Translations under genes and position numbers: made by a program | Notes under the pieces: model-generated | The model's database searches: none | Told to the model about the DNA's origin: nothing | The model's input: only the letters and a program-made list of their open reading frames with translations | In this document: positions 7,191-28,831 of the stretch, piece after piece | Layout: each line of letters begins with the position of its first letter | Position numbering within the stretch: position 1 is the first letter of the stretch | IMG/VR virus record: IMGVR_UViG_3300045282_000183 | Span: 5,181-69,180 of that record | DNA: 64,000 nt | Direction: 5' to 3' (one strand) | Origin: a virus

Positions 7191-7661
7191 ATGACGAACG
7201 ACGTCAGGAACAAGCGCATGGTCGTGGGCTTCCTCTTCGACGAGGACGGCAAGGTGGCCCTCGTCGAGAAGACACACCCGGACTGGCAGCGCGGACTGCT
7301 GAACGGCATCGGCGGCGTGATGGAGCTCGGCGAGACGCCGCCGGACGCCATGCGTCGCGAGTTCGTCGAGGAGACCGGGGTCACCGGGATCTCCTGGAAG
7401 CACTTCGCCACGGAGATCGAGCCGTTCGGGGCCTACGTCTACTTCTACACGGCGCACGGCAGCGCGAACCTTCCGGAGAAGAACGACGCGGGCGAGCTGC
7501 TTCGGTGGGTCGATCCGGTGGACATCTACAGCCACATGCGCGAGGAGCGGGCGCTGGGCAATCTTCACTGGCTCCTGCCGCTGGCGCAGGACCCGCGCCC
7601 GCTCCAGGAGCCGGTGGTCGTGCACGTCAGGGGCGACATCAGGGAGACGCCGACATGGTGA
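7191..7661 (+). CDS. Nudix hydrolase
   Basis: Nudix box GGVMELGETPPDAMRREFVEETGV. Confidence 0.9.
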   Translation: MTNDVRNKRMVVGFLFDEDGKVALVEKTHPDWQRGLLNGIGGVMELGETPPDAMRREFVEETGVTGISWKHFATEIEPFGAYVYFYTAHGSANLPEKNDAGELLRWVDPVDIYSHMREERALGNLHWLLPLAQDPRPLQEPVVVHVRGDIRETPTW

Positions 7662-8206
7662 AGGACAGATTTGATAAAGCTGAGGACGCTCAGAATTTCT
7701 ACGATCCGCGCGAGGCTGACGACTATGCTGAAAAACTGCGCAACGCGGCGAAGGGCTGGATCGGCGTGGACCTGGATGGCACGCTGTTCCACTACGACAA
7801 GTGGGTCGGCTGGAACGTGTTCGGCGAACCGATCGCGCCGATGGTCGAGCGCGTGCGGAAGTGGGTCTCGGAGGGCATCGAGGTTCGCATCGTGACGGCG
7901 CGCGTCGGCATTCCGGTCTGGGGTGGATACACCGACGCGCCGCGCGTGTCCCACGTGCTCAAGCACCAGTGCCGCGTGACCGGTGACATGTTCAGCGACG
8001 CCTCGATGATACGCGCGATCCAGGACCATCTCGAACGGCACGGTCTTCCGCGCCTGAAGGTCCAGTGCTACAAGGACGTCGACATGATCGAGCTCTGGGA
8101 CGACCGCGCCGTGCAGGTCGTGCCGAACACCGGACGCACGCTGGCCGAGGAGCACGCGGCCGAGCTGAGCGCGCTCCAGGGCAAGGCGCAGGGGGTGTCG
8201 TCATGA
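7655..8206 (+). CDS. HAD-superfamily phosphatase (PNKP phosphatase-like)
   Basis: VDLDGTL, IVTAR, LWDDRA motifs. Confidence 0.8.
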   Translation: MVKDRFDKAEDAQNFYDPREADDYAEKLRNAAKGWIGVDLDGTLFHYDKWVGWNVFGEPIAPMVERVRKWVSEGIEVRIVTARVGIPVWGGYTDAPRVSHVLKHQCRVTGDMFSDASMIRAIQDHLERHGLPRLKVQCYKDVDMIELWDDRAVQVVPNTGRTLAEEHAAELSALQGKAQGVSS

Positions 8207-11350: not shown

Positions 11351-11725
11351 ATGAGACTGACAAGGACATTGCTCATCGCCACCGCGCTGCTCGTCGCCGG
11401 ACCCGTCGTCGCAGTCGAGCTGGACAAGAAGATCACGAACCTCGACGGCACGGCGATCGTCGACGACAAGGGCAAGGAGATGGATCTCACGATCCGGACC
11501 GTGATCATCAACGCCTTGATGTCACCGCGCGCGGACAAGCAGGACGAGACCGGCGTGGACAAGGTGAAGCGCGCCGAGCTGGCGCGGCGCGTGCTCCAGG
11601 ACAAGGACGGTTCCTACAAGTACACGGCCGAGGAGATCGCGCTCATGAAGGAATTGATCAACAAGAACTATCCGTCGCCTCTCGTGGTGGATCAGGCGTG
11701 GCGCGCACTGGAGAGCAACAAGTGA
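11351..11725 (+). CDS. hypothetical protein with predicted signal peptide
   Basis: MRLTRTLLIATALLVAGPVVA then a helical domain. Confidence 0.65.
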   Translation: MRLTRTLLIATALLVAGPVVAVELDKKITNLDGTAIVDDKGKEMDLTIRTVIINALMSPRADKQDETGVDKVKRAELARRVLQDKDGSYKYTAEEIALMKELINKNYPSPLVVDQAWRALESNK

Positions 11726-12639
11726 AGAACGCCGCCAAGTTCTACGCCTACGCGCGGGAGAGATACAACATATTTCTCTTGCGCGAGAAGGGTGTCCCGC
11801 CGCCTTGGACGAAGGACCAGATCCTTCGCGCAGGACGTTTCTGCAATGTTTTTCGTGAAGATGACAAGACGACGCGGTGGTTCCGGCAGCACGTGCGCGA
11901 GCGGTACATGAACAAGGACGAGGTTCTGCTCGCGACCGTTGTATTCCGCATGTTCAATCGGATCACGACCGGCGAGGCTATCTTCAACCAGATGATGTTG
12001 CCGTCGAGTCGTTTCAAGAAGAATGACATGTGTGCATTCGACATCTTTGCAGCCACGGGCGACCCGGAGATCTTGCGTTCGGCCGTGCTGGCGCTCATGC
12101 CATCAGGTCCGTATTGTACGGGGGCATATATCATCAGCAGTCCACCCGGCTACACTAAGCTGGAGGGAGTGCTGGAGGTCTTGGCTCGCTTCTGTCAGAA
12201 CTCCGGCTGGCAGGAATGGCTGCATACGGCTGGAGGGCCGCGCGCCAACGAGTGCACATTGGAGGCCGCGCACGACTGGCTCCGGGAGCAGGAATATTTC
12301 GGCAACTTCCACGCCTACGAGATTGTGACGGACCTGCGTCACACGCCGCTGCTCGATCAGGCCCCGGACATCATGACTTGGGCCAGCCCGGGTCCTGGAG
12401 CACGGCGGGGGGTGAACAGGATATGGGGTCTGCCGCACAAGGACAAGACACTTGCAAGGCCCCAGTTAATCGAGAAGATGCGAGAGTTGCTGTCGTTGTC
12501 AAGAGATGCCAGAATGTGGCCTAGTGAGTGGCCTGCCATGGAACTCAGAGACATCGAGCATCTAACTTGCGAGTGGGACAAATATTCCAGAGTGAAACTT
12601 GGTCAGGGCAAGCTGAAGGGGAAATTTGACGGTGGCTAG
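11722..12639 (+). CDS. 5-hydroxymethyl-dU DNA kinase (aGPT-Pplase1 family)
   Basis: ERYNIF...PWTKDQIL...RFCNVFREDDKTT, FRMFN, AYEIVTDL, GPGARRG, DIEHLTCEWDKY. Confidence 0.88.
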   Translation: MKNAAKFYAYARERYNIFLLREKGVPPPWTKDQILRAGRFCNVFREDDKTTRWFRQHVRERYMNKDEVLLATVVFRMFNRITTGEAIFNQMMLPSSRFKKNDMCAFDIFAATGDPEILRSAVLALMPSGPYCTGAYIISSPPGYTKLEGVLEVLARFCQNSGWQEWLHTAGGPRANECTLEAAHDWLREQEYFGNFHAYEIVTDLRHTPLLDQAPDIMTWASPGPGARRGVNRIWGLPHKDKTLARPQLIEKMRELLSLSRDARMWPSEWPAMELRDIEHLTCEWDKYSRVKLGQGKLKGKFDGG

Positions 12640-13240
12640 TGGTGTGCACATGATACGGAACACGGTGAACGGCAAGATGTACGTTGGCTCCGCCAAGCGT
12701 CTTGCCAATCGCTGGTCTGTGCACGTCGCTACGTTGAAGAAGGGTCGGCATCACTCGAAGAAGTTGCAGCGGGCATGGAACAAATACGGTGCACGAGCAT
12801 TCGTGTTCGAAGTACTGATCACCTGCGATATTAAGCACGCAGTCAAGATCGAACAGGACTTTATGAACAAGCTGGATGTCGTGAAGAACGGATACAATGT
12901 CCATCCAAATGCGCGCTCGGCCTTGGGACGAAAACACAATAAGATGACACGAGCCAGAATGTCTGCGAGTGCCGTGCTCGTGGCGTCGAGTGTGTCTGAG
13001 AGAAAACGAAGATCACAGCGCGCGAAGGCGCAGCACGTGGCGGGCAAGTTTGGTCAAAAGACCTGGACGCGCCCAGCGAGATACAATCCAATCAGCGCTG
13101 TGGCTGGCGCGAAGGCGTTGAAATCTTGCACGCGCGACAAGCGATGGGTCGCTAAGAGAGCCAAGAACGCTGTCGCTGCACGCCGACATTTCTACAATGT
13201 TCACACAAGACAAGTGGAACTGATGAGGAAATACAGATGA
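12626..13240 (+). mobile_element. free-standing GIY-YIG homing endonuclease
   Basis: SGVHMIRNTVNGKMYVGSA...R...H...E...GYN; lower GC. Confidence 0.85.
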
Positions 13241-13458
13241 GCAAGCGCATTACGTGGTACGTGACAGTCAAGAAGATCGAGGAACGCTTCGTGCGGCGCT
13301 GGGTGAAGGGTGTCGGCAACGAGGCCGTGTTCTCCAAGGACTCCGAGGGATGGTACGTCGTGTTCGCAGAGTGGGCCGCCGCAGCCCACGTCGGCAAGGA
13401 CAAGCCCGACTTCGAGCCGGGTGATTGTGTCAAGATGACAATGGAGAAGGTGTCATGA
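13237..13458 (+). CDS. hypothetical protein
   Basis: Coupled ORF. Confidence 0.55.
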   Translation: MSKRITWYVTVKKIEERFVRRWVKGVGNEAVFSKDSEGWYVVFAEWAAAAHVGKDKPDFEPGDCVKMTMEKVS

Positions 13459-14423
13459 GGAACGCCAAGATGTTCAGTTTCGTGCGCGTCAGCGAGAACA
13501 GCATGGTCGCGAGCGTTCGCATCGCGCGCTGGCTGTCGAACTACCTGAGCGTCGAGCTCGTCGACGACGAGCGTATAGCGGACAAGGTGCTCGACACCCT
13601 GATCATCATCAACGGAGCCTACGGCTTCTGCAAGTATCTCGCTCCTCTGGGCGAGGCCATCTACGACGCGCGACGCGTGATCTGGGCGCAGAACGACTAC
13701 ACCATCATCCCGCCGAAGGACGAGGGCGACGCCGAGTCTCCGTTCCGGAAGGCGTTCGTGCGCCGGAAGGAGATGGGCAAGCTGCCGACCATCTTCTGGT
13801 CCACCTGCGAGAAGTGGGCGTCGCGCAAGGGCTCGCACTACGTGAACTGGAACATGCTGACGTTCGACGAGAAGTACGACCAGAAGAAGGTCGAGCATCG
13901 ACGCAGTCTCGTCCCGCACGACACGCTTCTGTACTACGGCAGCTTCCGGGACGGAAGCGGCAAGTCCAGTCGCGTGTCGTTGTTCGATCGGTACTTCCGG
14001 AACCCCGAAGTCCAGACCGTGATCAGCAGCCCGTCGCCGAAGTTCGCCGAGCGATACCCGAACTGTCGATGCGTCGGCGTGATCGAGGACCCGTTCTACG
14101 CGGGGCTCGCCATGCACGGTCTCGGCCTCTACATCGAGGACCGCAAGTCCAGCGAGGAGTTCCACTCGCCCGCGAACCGCTTCTACGAGATGCTGTCGGC
14201 CGGGCTGCCGATGGTGTTCCAGCCGGAGGCTGGCTCCATGCTGCGACGCGCGGGCTTCGACCCGAGCCACTACGAGGTTCACAACGCGCGCGACGTCGTG
14301 AAGTTTATGGAGCGCCGCGAGACCATCGGCGAGGCGCAGCGTCGCGCGTGGATCGAGAGCAAGACCGGATTCCGCAACCGGCTGATCAGTCAGGTCGCCG
14401 AGGCGCTGGAGGCGCTGCCGTGA
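13455..14423 (+). CDS. GT-B fold glycosyltransferase, T4 beta-glucosyltransferase-like
   Basis: LLYYGSFRDG resembles BGT IYGGSFRSG; NRFYEMLSAGLPMV resembles the nucleotide-sugar-binding helix. Confidence 0.7.
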   Translation: MRNAKMFSFVRVSENSMVASVRIARWLSNYLSVELVDDERIADKVLDTLIIINGAYGFCKYLAPLGEAIYDARRVIWAQNDYTIIPPKDEGDAESPFRKAFVRRKEMGKLPTIFWSTCEKWASRKGSHYVNWNMLTFDEKYDQKKVEHRRSLVPHDTLLYYGSFRDGSGKSSRVSLFDRYFRNPEVQTVISSPSPKFAERYPNCRCVGVIEDPFYAGLAMHGLGLYIEDRKSSEEFHSPANRFYEMLSAGLPMVFQPEAGSMLRRAGFDPSHYEVHNARDVVKFMERRETIGEAQRRAWIESKTGFRNRLISQVAEALEALP

Positions 14424-14665
14424 CGCAGTACGTCGACAAGTGTTTGCTGTGTAAGGGCGACTCCGGTGTCGTCGACAGTAGACCTGTCGGTGAGACCGTG
14501 CGCCGAAGAAGAAAGTGCTTGTCATGTTGGGAGCGCTGGACAATATTCGAAGTGAGACGTGAGGATAGAAAAGACGTGAGAGTAGATGCTGTCCGAATAA
14601 ATCGTCTGAGACTAGCTGCCGAGTTTCTAACCGAGATAGCCACCAACTTGGAGCAGAAAACATGA
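14420..14665 (+). CDS. NrdR-like N-terminal zinc-ribbon protein (no ATP cone)
   Basis: CLLC...VVDSR...VRRRRKCLSCWERWTIFE. Confidence 0.8.
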   Translation: MTQYVDKCLLCKGDSGVVDSRPVGETVRRRRKCLSCWERWTIFEVRREDRKDVRVDAVRINRLRLAAEFLTEIATNLEQKT

Positions 14666-15210
14666 TCATCTCCCTGCGAGGCACGTCCGGCAGCGGCAAG
14701 TCCACGCTCGTGCGCAAGATCACGGCGCTCTACGAGGACGGAGGCACGCCCTTCTTCGTGGACGGCAGGAAGAAGGCGTACTACACGACGCACAACCGGG
14801 GCGGCGGGCGCGGGACGGCGCTGGTCGTGCCCGGGCACTACGACATTGCGAACGGTGGCATCGACACGCTGAAGTCACTGGACGAGGCCTATGAGATCGC
14901 GAGTCGCGCCGACAATGACGGCCACGACGTGCTCATGGAGGGCAAGAACATGAGCGACGGGCCACCGCACGCCTTGACGCTGTGCAGGGACGGGCGCGAC
15001 GTGCGCGTGGTGCACATACTGGAGCCGGTCTGGAAGTGCTATCACGCGGTGCGCAAGCGCGGGCATCACATACAGATGGAGACCATCGTACGGACACACG
15101 AGAAGTGCCTGCGCGACGTTCAGACTTTTCGCACGCTCGGTCTCGAGCACGTGCGACAGGAGGGGAGAGAGAAGTGCCTCGAGATCGTGAAGTGGTGGCT
15201 GGCGCTGTGA
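14662..15210 (+). CDS. P-loop nucleotide kinase associated with base modification
   Basis: LRGTSGSGKST, GGIDTL, VLMEG. Confidence 0.75.
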   Translation: MIISLRGTSGSGKSTLVRKITALYEDGGTPFFVDGRKKAYYTTHNRGGGRGTALVVPGHYDIANGGIDTLKSLDEAYEIASRADNDGHDVLMEGKNMSDGPPHALTLCRDGRDVRVVHILEPVWKCYHAVRKRGHHIQMETIVRTHEKCLRDVQTFRTLGLEHVRQEGREKCLEIVKWWLAL

Positions 15211-15791
15211 CAGTCGAGAAACCCATGCTGATCGGCATGTGCAACCCCGTGTCCCAAGAGCCGGGACACGAGCTCTACCCGCATCCGGACGGCTGCACCG
15301 GCCATCGGCTGTGGAAGATGCTCCAGGAGCGCCTGCCGCACGTGTCGCGGCGACACTACCTCGAGACGTTCGAGCGGCGCAATCTCGTGTGCGGCGTCGC
15401 GTGGAACCGCGCGCTTGGCCGGGCCGAGGCCGATCGCATCTACGCCGAGCTCTGGGGCAGCAGACGCACCGTCGTTCTCCTCGGCGAGGACGTGCGCCGC
15501 GCGTTCGGGCACCCCCGGCTTCTCGTCGAGCCGCAGGTGATCGGGGGTTGCACGTGGCGGCAGCTTCCGCATCCCAGTGGTCGCAATCTCTGGTACAACA
15601 GCCCGAACCATCGCAAGATGGCGGGCACACTGATGGAGGAGCTCTATGTGGCGTATCACCGTGATGATGATCATGTTCGTGCTGATCGGGATCGCTCTGC
15701 TGCGGCTGGAGCCGCTGCCGATCGTGATCAGCGGCGACGACGCGGTGCCGCTGCTCGCCGAGCGAAGGACGACGGCGTCGAGTATGAGTAG
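15207..15791 (+). CDS. uracil-DNA glycosylase superfamily protein
   Basis: LIGMCNP, TGHRL, VVLLGE, LPHPSGRNLWYN. Confidence 0.7.
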   Translation: MTVEKPMLIGMCNPVSQEPGHELYPHPDGCTGHRLWKMLQERLPHVSRRHYLETFERRNLVCGVAWNRALGRAEADRIYAELWGSRRTVVLLGEDVRRAFGHPRLLVEPQVIGGCTWRQLPHPSGRNLWYNSPNHRKMAGTLMEELYVAYHRDDDHVRADRDRSAAAGAAADRDQRRRRGAAARRAKDDGVEYE

Positions 15792-15924
15792 TGGCGCACC
15801 GATCTGCGCGCAGATGGTCGTGACGGGTGGTGGCGGCGCGTCCGGGACGACGGTGTTGGTGCCGTGCGCGACGAGTGCGACCAGCGGAACTTGGGTAACG
15901 ACAACTAGAAAGGGAGGAGACTGA
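15646..15924 (+). CDS. small membrane/exported protein
   Basis: GGAGG SD; hydrophobic N-terminus; overlaps UDG tail. Confidence 0.45.
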   Translation: MWRITVMMIMFVLIGIALLRLEPLPIVISGDDAVPLLAERRTTASSMSSGAPICAQMVVTGGGGASGTTVLVPCATSATSGTWVTTTRKGGD

Positions 15925-15925
15925 C

Positions 15926-17035
15926 ATGTACGTACTCATCGAGCGAAACGTGTGCGACTTGCTGCCGAGAGGTCTCGGGTTCATGCGCGACAAGCCTCGC
16001 GAGAAGACCCGGAACGGCGATGCGCTGGTGGCTCCGGCTCCGGTGATGTCGGTCTACCAGCGACCGACCGAGCGCGTGCTGCGCAGTCCGCAGCGCGACG
16101 CCAATCCATTCTTCCACCTGATCGAGAGCCTGTGGATGCTGGCCGGTCGTGACGACGTGGCGACGCTGAACCACTACGTCGGTGACTTCGGCGGGCGCTA
16201 CGCCGAGGAGGACGGCCGGGTCCACGGCGCGTATGGTCATCGGTGGCGCGTCGGGCTGGGGTTTGATCAGCTCGACGTGATCGTGAGACGTCTGCTCGAG
16301 AACCCGAGTGACCGGCAGTGTGTTCTGCAGATGTGGGACGCGCGAGCCGACACGTTGCATCAGGACGGCTTCGACGACCTGCTTGGTGACTGGAAGGACC
16401 GCCCGTGCAACACGCACGTCTACTTCCGGGTGCGGACCGTGCCGATTGATCCTATCATGTACGGCGATGGTGTCGTTCTGCCGCGCTACGAGTACGTGCT
16501 CGACATGACCGTGTGCTGTCGCAGCAACGACGTGGTCTTGGGTGCGTACGGTGCGAACGCCGTGCACTTCAGCATGCTCCAGGAGTACGTGGCCGGGCGA
16601 GTGCGGACGCAGGTCGGCACGATGTATCAGCTCTCGAACAACTATCACGTCTACGTCGATCAGCTCGCGAAGATGGAAAAGCGTCTGTTCGACGGCAAGC
16701 CGACGCAGAACCTCGCGAATGAAATGCAGCCCTACGGCGTGGGTGTCGGCTGGGAGGCCGAGCCGATCGGCGAGCACTGGGGCGCGTGGGACGATGATCT
16801 GCACGCATTCATGGAGTGTCACGACGTGCTGTGGAGCATTCCCGCTCCATCACTCGAAATGAGGGCGGAGGTGAGTAACAGGTGGTTCGCGCAGGTGGCC
16901 TGGAAGGTGGCGTTCGCCTACTTCTGTCACAAGCACGATCGTCGCGACGAGGCGCTCGCTGTGGCCGGGCAGATCGAGGCCGGCGACTGGCGCGGCGCGT
17001 GCGTGGAGTGGCTGCTGCGGAGGTACGCGCGATGA
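15926..17035 (+). CDS. thymidylate synthase homolog, probable dUMP hydroxymethylase
   Basis: ANPFFH, GAYGHRW, DRPCN, RSNDVVLGAYGANAVHFS (Asn at dUMP-specificity position), NNYHVY. Confidence 0.88.
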   Translation: MYVLIERNVCDLLPRGLGFMRDKPREKTRNGDALVAPAPVMSVYQRPTERVLRSPQRDANPFFHLIESLWMLAGRDDVATLNHYVGDFGGRYAEEDGRVHGAYGHRWRVGLGFDQLDVIVRRLLENPSDRQCVLQMWDARADTLHQDGFDDLLGDWKDRPCNTHVYFRVRTVPIDPIMYGDGVVLPRYEYVLDMTVCCRSNDVVLGAYGANAVHFSMLQEYVAGRVRTQVGTMYQLSNNYHVYVDQLAKMEKRLFDGKPTQNLANEMQPYGVGVGWEAEPIGEHWGAWDDDLHAFMECHDVLWSIPAPSLEMRAEVSNRWFAQVAWKVAFAYFCHKHDRRDEALAVAGQIEAGDWRGACVEWLLRRYAR

Positions 17036-17604
17036 TCAACCTCTCGGAGGATCCGCGCGCGGCGCTCGAGCTGACGCGCTATCACTCGTGGCGACGACTG
17101 CGCGATCAGTCGGTTGGCGAGCACTCGTGCCAGATCATGAGAATACTTCTCACGGTGTGGCCCGATTGTCCTCGTCGAATGCTCGTGTACGCCGTGACGC
17201 ACGACATGGGCGAGATGGCCGGGGACATTCAGTATCCGTACAAGCTGAAGTACCCCGAACTCAAGCCACTCATGGACCGGGTGGAAAAGGACGTGGTCGG
17301 TGTCATGCGCGACGGGCTGGGTGCACCCCCAGCCGTGATGTTATCGAAATATGAGCTTGACGTATTCAAGATCGTGGAATTTGTGGAGATGTTCGAGTAT
17401 GGTCTCTCTGAACAAGGAATGGGAAATCAGTATGCTCGTATCATCTCTTCCCGATGTATATTGGCAGCGTCTGAGTTGATGGGCAGACTGGAACCCGGTG
17501 ATGCACTCGACATCAGACCGGCGATAAAGAGGTATGTAGATGCGCGCGCGGAATGGGAAGGGCAAAATCAAAACACTACCGCTTCCGACAAGAAAGAGAC
17601 TTAG
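17032..17604 (+). CDS. HD-domain 5'-deoxynucleotidase-like protein
   Basis: TRYH...QSVGEHS...HDMGE (YfbR-like). Confidence 0.8.
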   Translation: MINLSEDPRAALELTRYHSWRRLRDQSVGEHSCQIMRILLTVWPDCPRRMLVYAVTHDMGEMAGDIQYPYKLKYPELKPLMDRVEKDVVGVMRDGLGAPPAVMLSKYELDVFKIVEFVEMFEYGLSEQGMGNQYARIISSRCILAASELMGRLEPGDALDIRPAIKRYVDARAEWEGQNQNTTASDKKET

Positions 17605-18040
17605 AGAACTATTCATCTACGACGAGAAGCGTGGTGTTCTCATAAATCGAGTGAGCTACGGCCACAGATTTGCCGGAGCGATCGTGGGAAGGCCAGACAG
17701 ATGCGGCGCGTTGCAGGCGATGGTAGACGGAAAGTTGTACTTCGTGCATCGCCTGATTTGGAAATACGTGAAAGGAAAAGATCCCAAGCACACGATAGAT
17801 CATAAGAACCGAAAATGTGATTTTAACCAGGCTTCTAATCTTCGAGACTTCACGATGCGACAGCAAGGATACAACAGAAAATTAAGTAAAAAGAACAAAT
17901 CTGGCGTGGCTGGAGTATTCAAGATGGGAGACGGGAGATGGAGAGTTCGCATCGGAGAAACTGGGTTGGGGAAATACCGTTCCAAGCGTGAAGCAATAAG
18001 AGTCCGAAGACAAGCAGAACAAATGGAGACACAGCGATGA
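17540..18040 (+). mobile_element. HNH homing endonuclease with AP2-like C-terminus
   Basis: VHRLIW...IDHKNR...NQASNLR, NKSGVAGV...WRVRI; AT-rich. Confidence 0.88.
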
Positions 18041-19239
18041 CTGAGCACAACATGAACCACCTGAACTACATTCGCGTCGTGGTCGAGGCGGACCTCGCCT
18101 ACGTCGACCGCAAGGACCGTCAGTACGGCGGGAGCTGGAAGCGCCGCGGCGGTGTCGGCGCGTTCATGATGCTGGCGCGCAAGTGGGACCGACTGGAGCA
18201 GTTCATGGCGAAGTTTCACTACGATATTTTTGGAGTGATCGATGCGGAGATCGCGCGCGAGAAGAGCGAAGCAGAAAGTCGCACGCCAGCGGGCTACACG
18301 CCAGACTACGACGTTGGTAAGGACGGCACCGTGCTTGCCGAGGTACGCGACCTTCGCCGTTATCTCATGCTCGTGGAGGCCGAGATGATGGCGCGCGGGG
18401 TTGTGCCCGGCGACCGCGTCTTCGGGGTCGCCACTGCTGGAGGCAAGAAGGGCGAGCCCGTCGACGTGCTGCGCGAAGGCACGACGGAGATCCGCAAGTC
18501 CTTCGTCGGTGGCGACGGTCAGGTCATCCGCGAGCTGGATCCGGTATGGGTGATGCCGGACCCCGGCGAGCTTCACTCGACCAGAAACAAGCCCGAGGCC
18601 GCCGTGGCGCGACGGCTCGAGCGCAACGGCGAGGTGACCGTGGACTACGCGACCGGCGAGTCGCAGATTGTGAAACACGGCAGGCTCTCGCGACGCGCGA
18701 CCGTGATCCGGGAGCTCGACGTGAACGGCCCGGTGATCATGAACGGCATGGTCCACGAACACGGCCGATCGCCTCGCGTCGCGACCGCCGAGGACCTCGC
18801 GCTGGCCGAGAGAACCTTCACGACGGACCGGCGCGTGCCGCGCTACGAGCCGGACACGCCCGACGAGGACAACATCGCCTGTCGGGACGCGCCCTTCGTC
18901 GTACCGGAGAGCTACTGGCGACGCAAGAACATCGAGCGGGACGCCTTCGATAAATTCTGGACGCTGCGAGCACCGGACGTGCACGTGCTGGACGCGCACG
19001 TGGTCAGCGACAGCATTCCGGGTCTGCTGCGCAACTACTACCACTCGCGGGGCGGCGAGTGGATCATCGATATCGACCGGGTGCCAGCGTCAGTTCGCGG
19101 ACACTTTCCGGCGCTGCGCGGCGAGGTCAACATGAAGGAGCACGAGGAACTGCCGGAGTGGCAGCGCGTGCTCTACACGTGGGACGCCAACGGCACGAAG
19201 TTCCGGCTGGCGCAGCTTGGTTGGGGAGGTGGACTATGA
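18037..19239 (+). CDS. nucleotide-modification-associated (MazG-like/Nmad) domain protein with long C-terminal extension
   Basis: KDRQYGGSWKRRGGVGAFMMLARKWDRL...DLRRYLMLVEAE. Confidence 0.7.
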   Translation: MTEHNMNHLNYIRVVVEADLAYVDRKDRQYGGSWKRRGGVGAFMMLARKWDRLEQFMAKFHYDIFGVIDAEIAREKSEAESRTPAGYTPDYDVGKDGTVLAEVRDLRRYLMLVEAEMMARGVVPGDRVFGVATAGGKKGEPVDVLREGTTEIRKSFVGGDGQVIRELDPVWVMPDPGELHSTRNKPEAAVARRLERNGEVTVDYATGESQIVKHGRLSRRATVIRELDVNGPVIMNGMVHEHGRSPRVATAEDLALAERTFTTDRRVPRYEPDTPDEDNIACRDAPFVVPESYWRRKNIERDAFDKFWTLRAPDVHVLDAHVVSDSIPGLLRNYYHSRGGEWIIDIDRVPASVRGHFPALRGEVNMKEHEELPEWQRVLYTWDANGTKFRLAQLGWGGGL

Positions 19240-19650: not shown

Positions 19651-21873
19651 ATGCCAGCAAAGATAGTTCGCCCGCGCAAGCAGGCACTGAACCCAGACCA
19701 GATACCCCTGATCACTCCGTCCTCGGACTGGGTGCGACCCGCGGAGCTGCCGACGCTCCGCGGCGTCGAGGAGTTCGCCGCGGACACGGAGAACAAGGAC
19801 GAGGGGCTGGCGGCTGGTGTTGGGCCGGGCTGGGTGAATGGTGCGGGGTACGTGGCCGGGGTCGGTATCTCGTGGCGCGAGGGCAGTAAGCTGAAAAAGA
19901 TCTACGTGCCCGTGCGACACCCGGACACGGAAAATTTCGACAAGGATCAGGTCGGGCGGTGGTTCACTGATATCAGCCGCAAGCGACGCGTGGTGTTCTT
20001 CAACGCGGGCTACGATATCGGCTGGATGCAGACTGACTTGAAGGTGCCCCCGCCTCCGACGATCGACGACGCCTCGTGCGCCGCGTTCATGATCGACGAG
20101 AACCACGAGGACCTGAGTCTCGACGGCGTGTGCGCATGGCGGGGGGTGCCCGGCAAGGACCTGACAGCGCTGCGCGAGACGGCGGTGATCTACGGCGTTC
20201 CGGCCGCCAAGGCGGTCGCGAATATCTGGCGCTTTCCCGCGCGCTACGCTGCGGCGTACGGATCGCAGGATCCCGAGAGCACGCTGCTCGCGATGGAGGA
20301 CATGCGCCCGGAGCTGGCCCGTCAGGGTCTGCTTCGGGCCTACGACGTCGAGATGCGGCTCGTGCCGCTGATCCACGCGATGCGTCGGAAGGGTATTCGG
20401 GTCGATATAGACCGGGCGACGAGACTTCGCGACGGTTTGCGGGAACGTTCCCTGAACGTTCTCTCAAAACTTGGTGAAAGGTTAGGTCTGCGCCGCGCGG
20501 CCACGCTCGAGGAGGTGCGGTCGCGGGACACGCTGATCCAGTGGTTCACCACGGAGAACGTGCCGTATCACATGGAGATGCGCGAGGACGAGACGGAGAC
20601 GGCGGCGTTCACCAAGAACTGGATGCGGCGGGCCGAGCACTGGCTGCCGAGGATGGTGGCGGAGGCGAAGCAGTGTCACGAGTTCGCGGACAAGTTCGTG
20701 CAGAGCTTTCTCCTGGACTTCGCGAGCGGCGGGCGCATCCACGCGTCGATCAACCAGTGGAAGTACGAGACCGACGAGAAGTCGCGGGCTGGCACGCGGT
20801 CGCATCGTCTGTCGTACTCGGACCCGCCGCTCCAGCAGGCTCCCTCCAGGGGCGAGCCGTTCGACGGATGGGAGCTGACGGGCGAAATCGCCGTGGAGTA
20901 TCGGTCGTGCTTCCTGCCGGAGGAGGGCGAGCTGTGGTTCTCGCCGGACTACTCGCAACAGGAATATCGTCACATTGTAAACGACGCGGCAACCAAGAAG
21001 TGCGACAAGGCGGACGAGGCGGTCGAGCTGTATCGCAACGACCCGAAGACGGACTTTCATCAGCTCGTGGTGAATTGGACCGGGCTCGGTCGTCGCCACG
21101 CCAAGGACTGTAACTTCGCGAAGGCGTTCGGGGCCGGGATACCGAAATTCGCCACCATGATCAGCAAGCCGCTCGAGGAGGCGGCCACGATCATGGGCAC
21201 CTACGACACGGAGCTGCCGTTCGTGTCGCAGTTGAACAAGCTGTGCGCACGGCTGGCGGAGAAGCGCGGATACATCGTCATGTACGACGGCGCGCGCTCA
21301 CACTTCGATCAGTGGGAGAGCAAGTGGCTCCCCAAGGAGGAGTGGAAGCGCGGCCGGGACGAGGGCTGGGCCATGTGGCCGTGCGACTTCGAGGAGGCGC
21401 AGGAGCGGGCCTCCACGGAGGGTCATCCGTGGAAGGGTCGTCAGCTCCGGCGGGCGTACACGCACAAGGCGATGAACCGCCGGATACAGGGCAACGCCGC
21501 GCGCCAGATGAAGGCCGCGATGGTGACCTGCTACGAGGAGGGGCACACGCCGCTCCTGCAGATGCATGACGAACTCAGTTTCTCGCTTCTTGATCCTGTT
21601 GCCGGATCGAGGATCGAGGAGATCATGCGGACGGTGTACGAGTGCCGCGTGCCGTTCCTCGTGGACGCCGAATGGGGTCCCACGTGGGGCGAGGCCAAGC
21701 ACGACCACGCCGGGGCGCAAGCCCAACTTGCCGCCCGGGCACCCAAGCCAGCCGCCCCCGGGCGACTGGCAGGGGCCGACACACTGGTATCCAGTGCGGT
21801 GCAGCACGGCACCCAAGCCAGCCGCCCCCGGGCGGCTGGCAGGGGCCAAAAACGGCCCAAGAAAGGGGCCTGA
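19651..21873 (+). CDS. polA: family A DNA polymerase with 3'-5' exonuclease
   Basis: ADTE, FFNAGYD, DYSQQEYR, RRHAKDCNFA, NRRIQG, QMHDEL. Confidence 0.95.
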   Translation: MPAKIVRPRKQALNPDQIPLITPSSDWVRPAELPTLRGVEEFAADTENKDEGLAAGVGPGWVNGAGYVAGVGISWREGSKLKKIYVPVRHPDTENFDKDQVGRWFTDISRKRRVVFFNAGYDIGWMQTDLKVPPPPTIDDASCAAFMIDENHEDLSLDGVCAWRGVPGKDLTALRETAVIYGVPAAKAVANIWRFPARYAAAYGSQDPESTLLAMEDMRPELARQGLLRAYDVEMRLVPLIHAMRRKGIRVDIDRATRLRDGLRERSLNVLSKLGERLGLRRAATLEEVRSRDTLIQWFTTENVPYHMEMREDETETAAFTKNWMRRAEHWLPRMVAEAKQCHEFADKFVQSFLLDFASGGRIHASINQWKYETDEKSRAGTRSHRLSYSDPPLQQAPSRGEPFDGWELTGEIAVEYRSCFLPEEGELWFSPDYSQQEYRHIVNDAATKKCDKADEAVELYRNDPKTDFHQLVVNWTGLGRRHAKDCNFAKAFGAGIPKFATMISKPLEEAATIMGTYDTELPFVSQLNKLCARLAEKRGYIVMYDGARSHFDQWESKWLPKEEWKRGRDEGWAMWPCDFEEAQERASTEGHPWKGRQLRRAYTHKAMNRRIQGNAARQMKAAMVTCYEEGHTPLLQMHDELSFSLLDPVAGSRIEEIMRTVYECRVPFLVDAEWGPTWGEAKHDHAGAQAQLAARAPKPAAPGRLAGADTLVSSAVQHGTQASRPRAAGRGQKRPKKGA
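21738..21847. repeat. two 40-bp hairpin-forming direct repeats with 30-bp spacer
   Basis: 21738-21777 and 21808-21847, one mismatch. Confidence 0.85.
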
Positions 21874-26574: not shown

Positions 26575-26771
26575 TGGCGCGCATCGTGACAGTGTATCTC
26601 AAGGGACCGTGGTCTCGTCCAGGACATCACTCTGGTGATGACTGGGATCGTGGCATCGTGCACGTTCAGACGAAGGATGGTGTCACATTGGCCGACAACG
26701 AGTACGGTGCCAACGTGCGCACGTATCCGGTCGGCAACATAGCACGCATAGAGGAGACAGGGCATTGGTGA
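26574..26771 (+). CDS. hypothetical protein
   Basis: TGATG coupling. Confidence 0.5.
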   Translation: MARIVTVYLKGPWSRPGHHSGDDWDRGIVHVQTKDGVTLADNEYGANVRTYPVGNIARIEETGHW

Positions 26772-27364
26772 GTATCAGGCAGACGAGCACCAAGTACCGG
26801 GGGCGCAAGGCCGAGACGTACGACGCGATGCGCCAGAAGCAGGTGCGCTGGAAGATCGAGAACGAGACCGTGGAGCGCATGCTCCGCGAGATAAGGCCGC
26901 ACAGCGTGCTGGACTGCCCGATTGGCACGGGGCGGTTTCTGCGGCTGTATGCCGATCTGAGCGTGCGCGAGGTGATAGGCGTCGACAGTAGTGACGAGAT
27001 GCTGCGGCTGGCACGGCGCAAGGTGCCGCGCTCCATGAAGCAGCACGCCAAGGTGAGGCTGGAGGTCGGCGACGCGCGGAAGCACGACTGTGTCGATCAG
27101 CGCGTGCACTGTGTCGTGTGCGTGCGCTTTCTCGACCTGATCGAGGAGGAGGCTATGCACGCGGTCATGCAGGAGATGATGCGTGTCGCTGACAAGTTGA
27201 TCGTGCTGACCATTCGCTTCGGTCCGAAGTACGTGCCGAAGTCGAACACTGCGACGCACGACAGCAAGAAATTCTTGTCGCTTGTACGACACTCCAAGTG
27301 GATCGTCGTAGAACGGGTGCCCGTGCTCAACGCGGGCTGGGAGATCGTGAGGCTGGGAAGATGA
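26768..27364 (+). CDS. class I SAM-dependent methyltransferase
   Basis: VLDCPIGTGRF, GVDSSDEML, GDAR, EMMRV. Confidence 0.85.
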   Translation: MSIRQTSTKYRGRKAETYDAMRQKQVRWKIENETVERMLREIRPHSVLDCPIGTGRFLRLYADLSVREVIGVDSSDEMLRLARRKVPRSMKQHAKVRLEVGDARKHDCVDQRVHCVVCVRFLDLIEEEAMHAVMQEMMRVADKLIVLTIRFGPKYVPKSNTATHDSKKFLSLVRHSKWIVVERVPVLNAGWEIVRLGR

Positions 27365-27530: not shown

Positions 27531-27761
27531 GTGAGCAAGAGACCAATGACACTGTGCGTGTCGTCGCCGTTCGAGATCACGATGACACAGCGCGCGCAGA
27601 ACGACACGTGGCGCGCATTCTTGCAGGGCGGCACGAACCACTCGGCGCAGGCCGGGACGCTGCCCTATATTATCCGGCGATGCGAGCAGGAAGGCGTGCC
27701 TTTCATGTTGAAGGCGCATCCGGGTCTCGGCTACTGGATCGAGCCGCAGGAGAAGAAGTGA
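27531..27761 (+). CDS. hypothetical protein
   Basis: GTGA-coupled ORF. Confidence 0.45.
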   Translation: MSKRPMTLCVSSPFEITMTQRAQNDTWRAFLQGGTNHSAQAGTLPYIIRRCEQEGVPFMLKAHPGLGYWIEPQEKK

Positions 27762-28831
27762 TGCAGACCTTTCTCCCTTATCCAGACTACGTTGCTTCGG
27801 CGCGCTGTCTCGACAGGCTGCGACTGAACAAGCAGCGCAGCGAGTGCTGGCAGATCGCCACGGCGCTCACCGTGTCGGGTGCGCCTTACACGCGGCATCC
27901 GGCCGTGCTCATGTGGGAGGGGCACGTAGGGTCGCTATGCATGTACATGGAGGCCGTGATCGACGAGTGGCGTCGACGTGGCTACCGGAACACGATCCAG
28001 ATACCGTGGATGCTGGACACGGGGCGGTCTCCGCCTCCATGGCTGGGAGACGCGATGTTTCACGCCTCGCACAGGAGTAACCTCCTGCGCAAGGACGCGA
28101 GACACTACGGCAGGTTCGGCTGGAAGGAACGGGCGGACCTGGAATACGTGTGGCCGAAGTCGACCGGACAGTCGACAATGAAGAAGGAGACAGACGGAAT
28201 GACGAGCAAGCTGATTGCACTGCCCAAGGATCTGCTGAAGACCGACCTAGCTGGTCTTCAGAACCTTCACTCTGACATGCTGGCGACGGCGTCGGACGTG
28301 GCGTTCGAGCCGCCGCCGGAGTTTCTGGTGGAGCTCGAGACGCCGGAGCAGGCCCGAGTGATCGTGGAGGGCCTCCACGCGGCTCTCCAGAAGCACCTTG
28401 CAGCGGACGACAAGAAGAAGGATACTAAGTCCTCGAAGAAGACTGAGACAACCGAGCAGAAGACCGCTCGGCTGAAGGCAGCACGCCTCGAGAAGGAGGC
28501 GACCGACAAGGCAACCCAGAAGCCCGCGGACAAGCCGACGGGCAAGCAGCAGAAGGAGAAGACCGTGGCCAAGAAAGCGAAGAAGGCAGTTGCCAAGAAG
28601 AAGGCGTCGAACAATGCTCGCGCCGGAGTCGACACGAGCAAGAAGATCACGTGGCTCGGCGCCGGCGGCGACGCCAAGGACCTCGGCGCCCGCGAGGGCA
28701 GCGAGCGCCACGAGCGCCGCAAGAAGTTGAAGGCCGCCAGCGGCAAGACCATCGAGTCCTACGTCAAGGGCGGTGGCAGCATCGCGACGCTGAACCGCGC
28801 CGTGTCCGAGAAGATCGTGAAGGTGGCGTGA
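27761..28831 (+). CDS. pyrimidine-dimer DNA glycosylase/DenV-like (MSMEG_6728 family) domain in frame with Lys-rich DNA-binding region
   Basis: MQTFLPY...RLNKQRSE...HPAVLMW...PPWLG...HASHRSNLLRKD; internal SD+start at 28199 and 28565. Confidence 0.8.
   Translation: MQTFLPYPDYVASARCLDRLRLNKQRSECWQIATALTVSGAPYTRHPAVLMWEGHVGSLCMYMEAVIDEWRRRGYRNTIQIPWMLDTGRSPPPWLGDAMFHASHRSNLLRKDARHYGRFGWKERADLEYVWPKSTGQSTMKKETDGMTSKLIALPKDLLKTDLAGLQNLHSDMLATASDVAFEPPPEFLVELETPEQARVIVEGLHAALQKHLAADDKKKDTKSSKKTETTEQKTARLKAARLEKEATDKATQKPADKPTGKQQKEKTVAKKAKKAVAKKKASNNARAGVDTSKKITWLGAGGDAKDLGAREGSERHERRKKLKAASGKTIESYVKGGGSIATLNRAVSEKIVKVA

Follow-up and report, generated by a model that had tools for sequence, protein, structure and literature searches.

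How do bacteriophages build the hypermodified bases of their DNA, and could thymine be made to carry a sugar? To our knowledge, it is a clade-2 amino-acid:DNA transferase (AADT) that appends amines in the thymidine hypermodification pathways solved to date, and every characterised case of phage DNA glycosylation that we know of concerns cytosine derivatives. Here we examine a gene cluster in a 64,000-nucleotide stretch of viral DNA, the window, which corresponds to bases 5181-69180 of IMG/VR record IMGVR_UViG_3300045282_000183, a genome of 69,180 bp with direct terminal repeats and a completeness rating of 100%. The cluster predicts a third combination, in which a sugar is placed on 5-hydroxymethyluracil (5hmU) by way of a thymidylate synthase (TS) homolog and a glycosyltransferase (GT) from a large, uncharacterised enzyme family. 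In phage PaMx11 the genes run in the order AADT, FAD enzyme, acetyltransferase, P-loop kinase, HMUDK_hel, TS, HD hydrolase and, farther on, polymerase, and because of this order we describe the window as carrying the PaMx11 core module minus its AADT branch. We propose post-replicative, TET-independent glycosylation of 5hmU in the phage DNA, and we give this proposal about an even chance of being correct. An earlier note, made from the letters of the window alone, had arrived at a glycosyl- or phosphoglycosyl-5hmU by a TET-independent route; that is a reasonable prediction, but the sequence cannot decide between a glycosyl group, a phosphoglycosyl group and a sugar borne on a linker.

What kind of enzyme is the GT? 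Its sequence matches no family in Pfam, PHROG or NCBIfam, and when the profile of its family was compared with the PDB sequences the best E-value was 0.28, to a ribosomal protein. The AlphaFold (AF2) model, built on an alignment of 28 homologs, has a predicted local distance difference test score (pLDDT) of 91.9. In a Foldseek search, the check that the earlier note had called for, ranks 1-6 were all T4 beta-glucosyltransferase (BGT), led by 1j39 with an E-value of 4.8e-10, and 273 structures matched at E ≤ 0.001, of which those listed are GT-B enzymes. Similarly, the structural search against representatives (VIA) placed T4 BGT first (1c3j_A, Z 19.4 over 291 residues at 4.0 Å), T4 alpha-glucosyltransferase (AGT) second at Z 16.4, and generic GT-B enzymes after these at Z ≤ 16.0; the lead over the generic folds is clear for BGT and slim for AGT. 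The hhalign comparison with T4 BGT (probability 3%) pairs GT residues S163 and R165 with S189 and R191, and R242 and E245 with R269 and E272, all four of which we take to be UDP-binding residues in BGT. These are the GSFR and RxxE positions of BGT. Across the 28 GT sequences R165, R242 and E245 do not vary, and S163 hardly varies. Fold and motif positions agree, which bears out the initial description of a GT-B enzyme with T4 BGT-like motifs. The GT is a separate family that is BGT-like by fold and by the position of its motifs and not by sequence membership.

This family is large and basic, with a median isoelectric point of 9.2. A word-indexed database yielded 431 homologs at E ≤ 0.001 from 1703 candidates, and no Pfam domain was found among the matches listed (120 of 431). 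An exhaustive hidden Markov model (HMM) search returned 607 representative clusters at E ≤ 0.001 and 270 at E ≤ 1e-30. One member of the representative library, P0201 (634 residues), is a natural fusion in which residues 11-317 are the GT and residues 347-599 are an HMUDK_hel domain (PF18723, 35 bits). Another, P0236 (784 residues), has a GT followed by about 450 residues that contain a second RLYEALWAG-type motif and resemble another GT-B C-terminal domain. Both emerged from the full HMM search; the word-indexed database held no fused form of at least 565 residues. A complex prediction for the GT with the HMUDK_hel protein of the window (hereafter Hel) scored 0.00, which counts neither for nor against binding. 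We predict that the GT is a DNA hydroxymethyl-pyrimidine glycosyltransferase, with context as the basis for a duplex-DNA acceptor.

The neighbouring genes point to 5hmU as the base on which the GT would act. The TS homolog has 41% identity to PaMx11 gp51. Its alignment to E. coli TS and to MilA shows that the catalytic Cys is present and that the base-discriminating site is Asn, in contrast to the Asp of T4 gp42 and MilA. The same pattern holds for the TS homologs encoded beside GT homologs, in which the catalytic Cys is found in 26 of 26 and the discriminating Asn in 25 of 26. The assignment of a dUMP-type enzyme is therefore supported by the Asn and by the identity to gp51, and from that identity together with the presence of a 5hmU kinase module we predict that the enzyme hydroxymethylates. 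An HD hydrolase is likewise present, as had been claimed for a nucleotidase, and is weakly similar to PaMx11 gp52; its ATG at 17032 overlaps the TS stop codon, and it is likely a (deoxy)nucleotidase that clears the dTMP/dTTP pool. The MazG-like label given to the 400-residue protein at the end of the cluster found no support in Pfam, PHROG or NCBIfam and is unconfirmed. A sub-threshold Atlas lead to DUF1599 (0.84) was followed by no match with the DUF1599 HMM, and a comparison with PaMx11 gp53 was not significant. Relatives of this protein share only its N-terminal 120 or so residues; by clustering, the family occurs in 22 of 35 loci with a median length of 197 residues, and the long C-terminal part is peculiar to this phage and those closely related to it.

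The P-loop protein shares 39% identity with PaMx11 gp49 (E = 3e-24), which is entered as a 5-hydroxymethyldeoxyuridine (5hmdU) DNA kinase in Table 1 of Lee 2021, and all 11 sequences compared keep its Walker A residues G7, G10, G12, K13 and S14. Judged by sequence, it is a 5-HMUDK ortholog and a predicted 5hmdU DNA kinase. The earlier note had listed a P-loop kinase, correctly, and had in addition named the aGPT-Pplase1 protein as the 5hmdU DNA kinase. That protein, Hel, has no P-loop, and the kinase ortholog is the separate P-loop protein. Hel scores far above the gathering cut-off of 25 bits for PF18723, covers model positions 5-278 of 281, and is about 45% identical to PaMx11-type proteins. 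In all 17 Hel sequences compared, PaMx11 gp50 and the protein of E. coli phage IME392 included, C291, E292 and K295 are invariant. Hel is an AADT paralog whose fold is probably like that of the helix-hairpin-helix (HhH) glycosylases and whose invariant Cys may correspond to the catalytic Cys of AADT.

Is any other known route to a hypermodified thymine encoded? The complete 69,180-bp genome, including the 5,180 bp outside the window, was searched at E ≤ 1. PF18724 (AADT, clade 2, formerly aGPT-Pplase2) had no match in it, so that the possibility of a clade-2 AADT lying beyond the window, which the earlier note had left standing, falls away; the same profile detected PaMx11 gp46 with an E-value of 3.3e-29, and among related viral records it matched 0 of 34, including 0 of 7 that are at least 90% complete. 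PF18746 (aGPT-Pplase3, clade 3) also had no match in the genome. The statement that no AADT is recognisable thus stands for clades 2 and 3 and is too strong as a whole, since Hel is an AADT paralog with a candidate catalytic Cys. Radical_SAM and SPASM were both without a match in the genome, in line with what had first been noticed in the window. Tet_JBP (PF12851) had no match there either, and no control genome exceeded the cut-off of that profile. Pfam scans of about 36 window open reading frames (ORFs) and four outside it found no family of pyridoxal phosphate enzymes, and no genome-wide search for such families was made.

An IMG/VR scan recovered 34 related loci, many of them short; a well-flanked subset of 17 has at least 4 kb on each side of the GT gene. 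By clustering and HMM, HMUDK_hel is found in 27 of the 34, TS in 29, the kinase in 25, the 400-residue family in 20, the HD hydrolase in 19 and a methyltransferase in 13. In the well-flanked subset HMUDK_hel and TS are each present in all 17, the 400-residue family in 16, the HD hydrolase in 15, the kinase in 12 and the methyltransferase in 4. A family A polymerase follows the module in 16-17 related loci. The GT and Hel genes overlap by 8 nt in one locus (L030), and in IME392 the GT stop codon abuts the Hel start. The window encodes a S-adenosylmethionine (SAM) methyltransferase elsewhere, which is without the DPPY-type motif of DNA methyltransferases; 12 related loci have its ortholog adjoining either the GT or the kinase.

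Among 50,697 phage records the only relatives of the GT are in E. coli phages IME392 and EP_H11, at about 25% identity. In IME392 (L003, 1060-10598) the order is methyltransferase, a protein of unknown function, BCCT transporter, PIG-L de-N-acetylase, a second protein of unknown function, GT, HMUDK_hel, a P-loop protein (AAA_28), TS homolog and HD hydrolase, with no AADT. The transporter, of betaine/choline type (E = 1e-92), lies 5' of the GT, and together with the de-N-acetylase it suggests an imported substrate and an amino sugar. The neighbourhood is thus common to metagenomic phages of 63% GC, as the window is approximately, and to a cultured coliphage. A different arrangement is seen in L036 (3028-7688), where the order is DUF4254, GT homolog, C5-cytosine DNA methylase, AAA_33-like P-loop protein and TS homolog. 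This is the sole locus in which the TS has Asp at the discriminating site, and HMUDK_hel was not found in it; L036 looks like a cytosine-type version with the same GT family. In two further loci (L033:8851-9624 and L034:5721-6482), which have no P-loop kinase, a protein of 253-257 residues is encoded beside the GT. It has a GxGRxGT[ST] loop and a weak, below-cut-off match to Sulfotransfer_3 (E = 0.0033), and it may mark a swap of sulfate for phosphate as the activating group or be a sugar sulfotransferase.

We propose that TET-independent glycosyl-5hmU is the product of the cluster because a uracil-type TS, an orthologous kinase module and a BGT/AGT-like GT occur together where neither TET/JBP nor a clade-2 or clade-3 AADT was detected. 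First, by orthology, the TS homolog would make 5-hydroxymethyl-dUMP before replication, the HD hydrolase, possibly with other nucleotide hydrolases, would lower the dT pool, and the family A polymerase would assemble 5hmU DNA. Second, as fold, motifs, context and L036 suggest, the GT would flip 5hmU out of the duplex and transfer a hexose from a host UDP-sugar to the hydroxymethyl group, which would give a base-J-like O-glycosyl-5hmU with no TET/JBP oxygenase involved. Direct action on the hydroxymethyl group is favoured by L036, where the GT is kept with a cytosine-type TS in a locus in which no HMUDK_hel was found, and by the PIG-L protein of IME392. Third, and least certain, the 5-HMUDK ortholog may phosphorylate other 5hmU residues or act in a later step, and Hel may process the 5-phosphomethyl-dU by the exocyclic-methylene chemistry known for AADT paralogs, with thymine reversion or the addition of another group as the outcome. 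The SAM methyltransferase encoded elsewhere in the genome may tailor the product.

Several observations weigh against this scheme. The hhalign match between the GT and BGT is statistically weak and spans the C-terminal domain alone, and the catalytic Asp100 of BGT falls in the N-terminal domain outside the alignment; a candidate for its equivalent is the invariant D81, which lies where strand 4 of the model ends. The GT has no Pfam match and hence lies outside the BGT family at the sequence level. The kinase and the GT would compete for one hydroxyl, and a sequential pathway accounts for the conserved co-occurrence of the genes, their 4-nt overlaps and the GT-Hel fusion no less well than parallel branches do. 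The kinase profile is silent in the whole records of nine GT loci; two of these are complete genomes that carry GT and Hel with no detectable 5-HMUDK, and therefore the kinase step is not universal. Thymine reversion by Hel is our own suggestion, and passages of the literature offer no published assignment of it. Finally, of the 34 related records 19 carry a radical SAM/SPASM gene, as do 4 of the 7 that are near-complete. Its product, of about 340 residues, is encoded directly 3' of the GT in 5 of 5 loci scanned, at the position that the zinc-ribbon ORF holds in the window, and in L005, by coordinate conversion, it lies between Hel and GT, the place of the GIY-YIG gene in the window. These genes suggest a more complex chemistry in the relatives.

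What, then, is the role of Hel? Hel may itself transfer a group, because it is an AADT paralog whose invariant Cys aligns with Cys247 of PaMx11 gp46 (PUGT). As a clade-1 AADT it would exchange the phosphate of 5-phosphomethyl-dU for a small hydroxyl-bearing nucleophile, and the GT would then glycosylate this linker, a reading that we hold to be distinctly unlikely. The hhalign comparison of Hel with PUGT, at 0.3% probability, lays E287 and C291 over E243 and C247, which the PUGT structure paper, in the passages drawn on here, identifies as a metal ligand and the catalytic nucleophile. At the position equivalent to E243, only about half of the 17 Hel sequences have Glu, the others Gln, and IME392 has Thr. 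The AF2 model of Hel (pLDDT 90.4) finds the queuine-salvage protein DUF2419 (Z 10.6) and PUGT (8z2m_A, Z 10.0 over 217 residues at 4.3 Å) in the VIA search, where ranks 1-25 all belong to the HhH superfamily and HhH DNA glycosylases come after PUGT; a Z of about 10 is middling for helical proteins. Foldseek gave no significant match for this model (E-values of 0.26 or more), and PUGT was not found when the Hel profile was compared with the PDB sequences. Hel is present in all 17 well-flanked loci and is joined to the GT in P0201, yet Pfam names the family as the helical domain of a kinase, and no donor-synthesis genes were seen. A search for long Hel forms found five, all consisting of a thymidylate-kinase-like domain and HMUDK_hel, with a GT in none (0/5).

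The literature bears on this reading from both sides. SP10, a maker of glutamyl-thymidine, is listed in the table of Lee 2018 with a clade-1 domain fused to a kinase and no clade 2, as expected if clade 1 can transfer. In M6, passages of Lee 2021 report, gp54 and gp51 are enough for glycinylation and the second paralog, gp55, is not needed for transfer. The same passages report that the SP10 kinase domain is active by itself, and hypermodifying phages are described, in parts of the literature, as turning leftover 5hmdU into thymine ahead of packaging. We infer from kinase activity without the helical domain, from the dispensability of gp55 and from this conversion that Hel has a role of its own; no function was found assigned to clade 1 in those literature passages. 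A bolder form of the idea, which we consider unlikely, is that the base kinase supplies a single catalytic unit, made up of the GT and the HhH protein with its Cys, which builds a linkage new to DNA. Possible linkages are a glycosyl-phosphomethyl-uracil, formed through the phosphate, and an ether-linked sugar, formed by attack of a hydroxyl on the exocyclic methylene. If such a unit exists, the clade-1 HMUDK_hel proteins, far from being a passive kinase domain, would act as transferases in every phage that hypermodifies thymidine.

Might the phosphate instead be kept in the product? The kinase could make 5-phosphomethyl-dU and the GT add a sugar on the phosphate, or the kinase could phosphorylate a sugar already transferred, so that thymine would bear a phosphodiester-linked or phosphorylated sugar. 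The genes are closely tied. In the window the GT, zinc-ribbon and kinase genes are linked by 4-nt overlaps, in L023, L031 and L032 the methyltransferase, kinase and GT genes overlap, and the kinase is found in 25 of the 34 related loci. In passages of PMC12686479, thymidines of SP-15, YerA41 and Carin-5 are described as bearing phosphate and sugars, in a linker-phosphate-sugar arrangement whose biosynthesis is unsolved, and IME392 and EP_H11 appear in Table 1 of that paper as phages with a YerA41-like polymerase. However, both the GT family and HMUDK_hel are missing from SP-15, YerA41 and Carin-5, and for this reason these phages are not precedents for the enzyme set, and we rejected the idea that the module makes an SP-15-type modification. 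The two complete genomes with GT and Hel and no kinase, the presence beside the L036 GT of a cytosine-type TS and another kind of P-loop protein, and the hydroxyl acceptors of the closest folds, BGT and AGT, also speak against a phospho-glycosyl product, which we regard as improbable.

We think it very improbable that the GT uses an acceptor other than DNA, be it a protein, a small molecule or a polysaccharide of the host surface, and that its position in the cluster is incidental. Most GT-B enzymes are not DNA enzymes, many of them reach Z 12-16 against the GT model, and the GT has no sequence-level match to BGT. On the other hand, all 17 well-flanked loci place its gene beside Hel and TS, within a module for nucleotide metabolism and replication, P0201 joins it to Hel, its top two structural matches are the two known DNA glucosyltransferases, and the neighbourhood is kept from the 63%-GC metagenomic phages through IME392. 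A T4-like cytosine system, with the TS homolog as a dCMP hydroxymethylase and 5-hydroxymethylcytosine as the base glucosylated by the GT, is scarcely credible, for while the best PDB sequence matches of the TS homolog are to the CMP hydroxymethylase MilA (E = 4.5e-11) and L036 has the cytosine-type Asp, the window TS has Asn in place of the Asp of MilA and T4 gp42, resembles gp51 of a phage whose DNA carries 5hmdU-derived bases, and stands beside a 5hmU-specific kinase module.

Table 1. Features of the cluster and of its surroundings in window coordinates, with radical SAM/SPASM genes of related loci in the coordinates of those loci.
Feature	Coordinates	Strand	Evidence or remark
HMUDK_hel protein (Hel; formerly aGPT-Pplase1, aGPT-Pplase clade 1)	11698-12639	+	PF18723, 150.8 bits
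GIY-YIG homing endonuclease, inserted between Hel and GT	12626-13240	+	PF01541, E 2.6e-8; phrog_314, E 5.9e-24
Small ORF of 73 residues, directly 5' of GT	13237-13458	+	no family match
GT-B glycosyltransferase (GT), 322 residues, T4 BGT-like by fold	13455-14423	+	AF2 model, Foldseek, VIA
NrdR-like zinc-ribbon ORF, 81 residues	14420-14665	+	PF22811, E 1.2e-10
P-loop kinase, 5-HMUDK ortholog	14662-15210	+	PaMx11 gp49, 39% identity; phrog_800, E 1.1e-11
TS homolog, predicted dUMP hydroxymethylase	15926-17035	+	PF00303, 68.7 bits; phrog_5131, E 1.7e-84
HD-domain hydrolase	about 17032-17604	+	YfbR-like, E 4e-4 (weak); phrog_6047, E 5.5e-18; phrog_7076, E 1.8e-6
HNH homing endonuclease	17540-18040	+	PF13392, E 2.5e-7; phrog_99, E 5.3e-38
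400-residue protein (o400)	18037-19239	+	no Pfam, PHROG or NCBIfam match
Family A DNA polymerase, 3' end of conserved module	19651-21873	+	PF00476, E 1.2e-31
Class I SAM methyltransferase	26765-27364	+	Methyltransf_25, E 2.2e-15
Radical SAM/SPASM genes of related loci	L025:2727-3752; L020:6006-7037; L037:10833-11822; L028:10864-11910; L010:2661-3731		3' of GT

The cluster extends from 11698 to 19239 (Table 1). The genes first named in it are all on the plus strand, with coordinates that proved exact or close; that inventory was incomplete, as the GIY-YIG, HNH and NrdR-like zinc-ribbon ORFs had gone unmentioned. The GC content at third codon positions is 0.63 for the GIY-YIG gene, against 0.8-0.9 for its neighbours, and 0.50 for the HNH gene. 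The zinc-ribbon ORF sits in the 238 bases that separate the GT and P-loop genes. It overlaps its neighbours by 4 nt at each end, its GTG start with the GT stop (GTGA) and its stop codon with the kinase ATG, and none of the 34 related loci contains a homolog. An ORF at 13814-14665, in another frame across the GT, was first read as a shadow ORF; its last 81 codons are the genuine zinc-ribbon gene. By tblastn, two of the 34 loci (L004 and L005) have a homolog of the 73-residue ORF immediately 5' of the GT. A megablast search with the 7.5-kb region against the 50,697 phage records gave no match.

Outside the cluster, the 5,180 bp beyond the window encode tail-like ORFs, an Amidase_2/SH3 endolysin and small ORFs. 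Upstream of the module (7191-8206, plus strand) are a NUDIX hydrolase, weakly like a pyrimidine dNTP diphosphatase, and a HAD/PNK-phosphatase-like protein, homologs of which adjoin the GT in L033 and the kinase in L016. A 425-residue protein encoded downstream (27554-28831, plus strand) has a pyrimidine-dimer glycosylase domain of the T4 endonuclease V type (PF03013, E = 1.1e-20) and belongs to the NCBIfam MSMEG_6728 family (E = 9.6e-37), with about 220 additional residues that have no assigned function. We considered this Pyr_excise protein as a hidden AADT and ruled it out, since it is of the T4 endonuclease V/MSMEG_6728 family and occurs in 0 of 34 related loci.

A sugar-decorated thymine of the kind predicted here, still undescribed, could protect phage DNA from bacterial nucleases, and the cluster bears on the role of the second, clade-1 HhH paralog in thymidine-hypermodifying phages. 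The prediction is directly testable because the core genes (GT, Hel, kinase, TS and HD hydrolase) are shared by two coliphages in culture, IME392 (MH719082) and EP_H11 (OP688485). A 5hmU glycosyltransferase acting on DNA, if that is what the GT is, would be a useful reagent for 5hmU mapping. The general idea of a sugar on T-derived bases is already circulating, as passages of Pyle et al. and of the 2026 T-dioxygenase paper indicate. In the literature consulted we found no natural sugar-bearing 5hmU in a phage and no GT linked to 5-HMUDK, while supplementary tables could list the family. The word 'kinase' never occurs in the main text of Pyle 2023, and the link of a GT to 5-HMUDK or HMUDK_hel is accordingly not described there.

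How does the cluster compare with known systems? The 'RP13-like' oligosaccharide-phosphate hypermodification of SP-15, YerA41 and Carin-5 likewise puts sugars on thymidine, but it uses a different linker chemistry and enzyme set; RP13 has HMUDK_hel only. The 5mYOX/TET-linked phage pathways (Burke 2021; Pyle 2023/2024) use GT-A and GT-B enzymes to decorate the hydroxymethyl-pyrimidines of DNA, as we predict here for a GT-B enzyme; those that have been characterised act after replication and were demonstrated with cytosine. Metagenomic GT-B pathways lie near a thymidylate synthase (~28%) more often than near a 5mYOX enzyme (~10%), according to passages of Pyle 2023, and T-dioxygenases of clade C2 are often near GTs (T-dioxygenase paper 2026). 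Kinetoplastid base J, made by JBP1/2 and JGT, is itself a glycosylated 5-hydroxymethyluracil in DNA, like the predicted product. In contrast, 5hmU in the window is predicted to come from a dUMP hydroxymethylase before replication, there being no Tet_JBP match, and the window enzyme is GT-B whereas JGT is grouped with GT-A in Pyle 2023.

Finally, the cluster can be compared with two well-known phage systems. With T4 it shares a pre-replicative hydroxymethylase of the TS family (gp42 in T4) and a post-replicative GT-B enzyme (BGT and AGT), the latter giving the best structural matches and the UDP motif positions. The homing endonucleases beside the GT gene also have counterparts there, with segA (GIY-YIG) by b-gt and mobB (HNH) by a-gt. 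It differs from T4 in the uracil-type Asn of its synthase, against the cytosine-type Asp of the T4 enzyme, in a GT outside the BGT sequence family, and in the addition of a DNA base kinase and an HhH partner, both missing from T4. With the PaMx11/M6-type clusters (Lee 2018; Lee 2021) it shares orthologs of the kinase (39%), HMUDK_hel (~45%), TS (41%) and HD hydrolase, all located 5' of a family A polymerase. Here Hel and the kinase have changed places about the GT, the cluster contains inserted homing endonucleases, and in place of the AADT, FAD lyase and acetyltransferase of those clusters stands a BGT-like GT-B gene.

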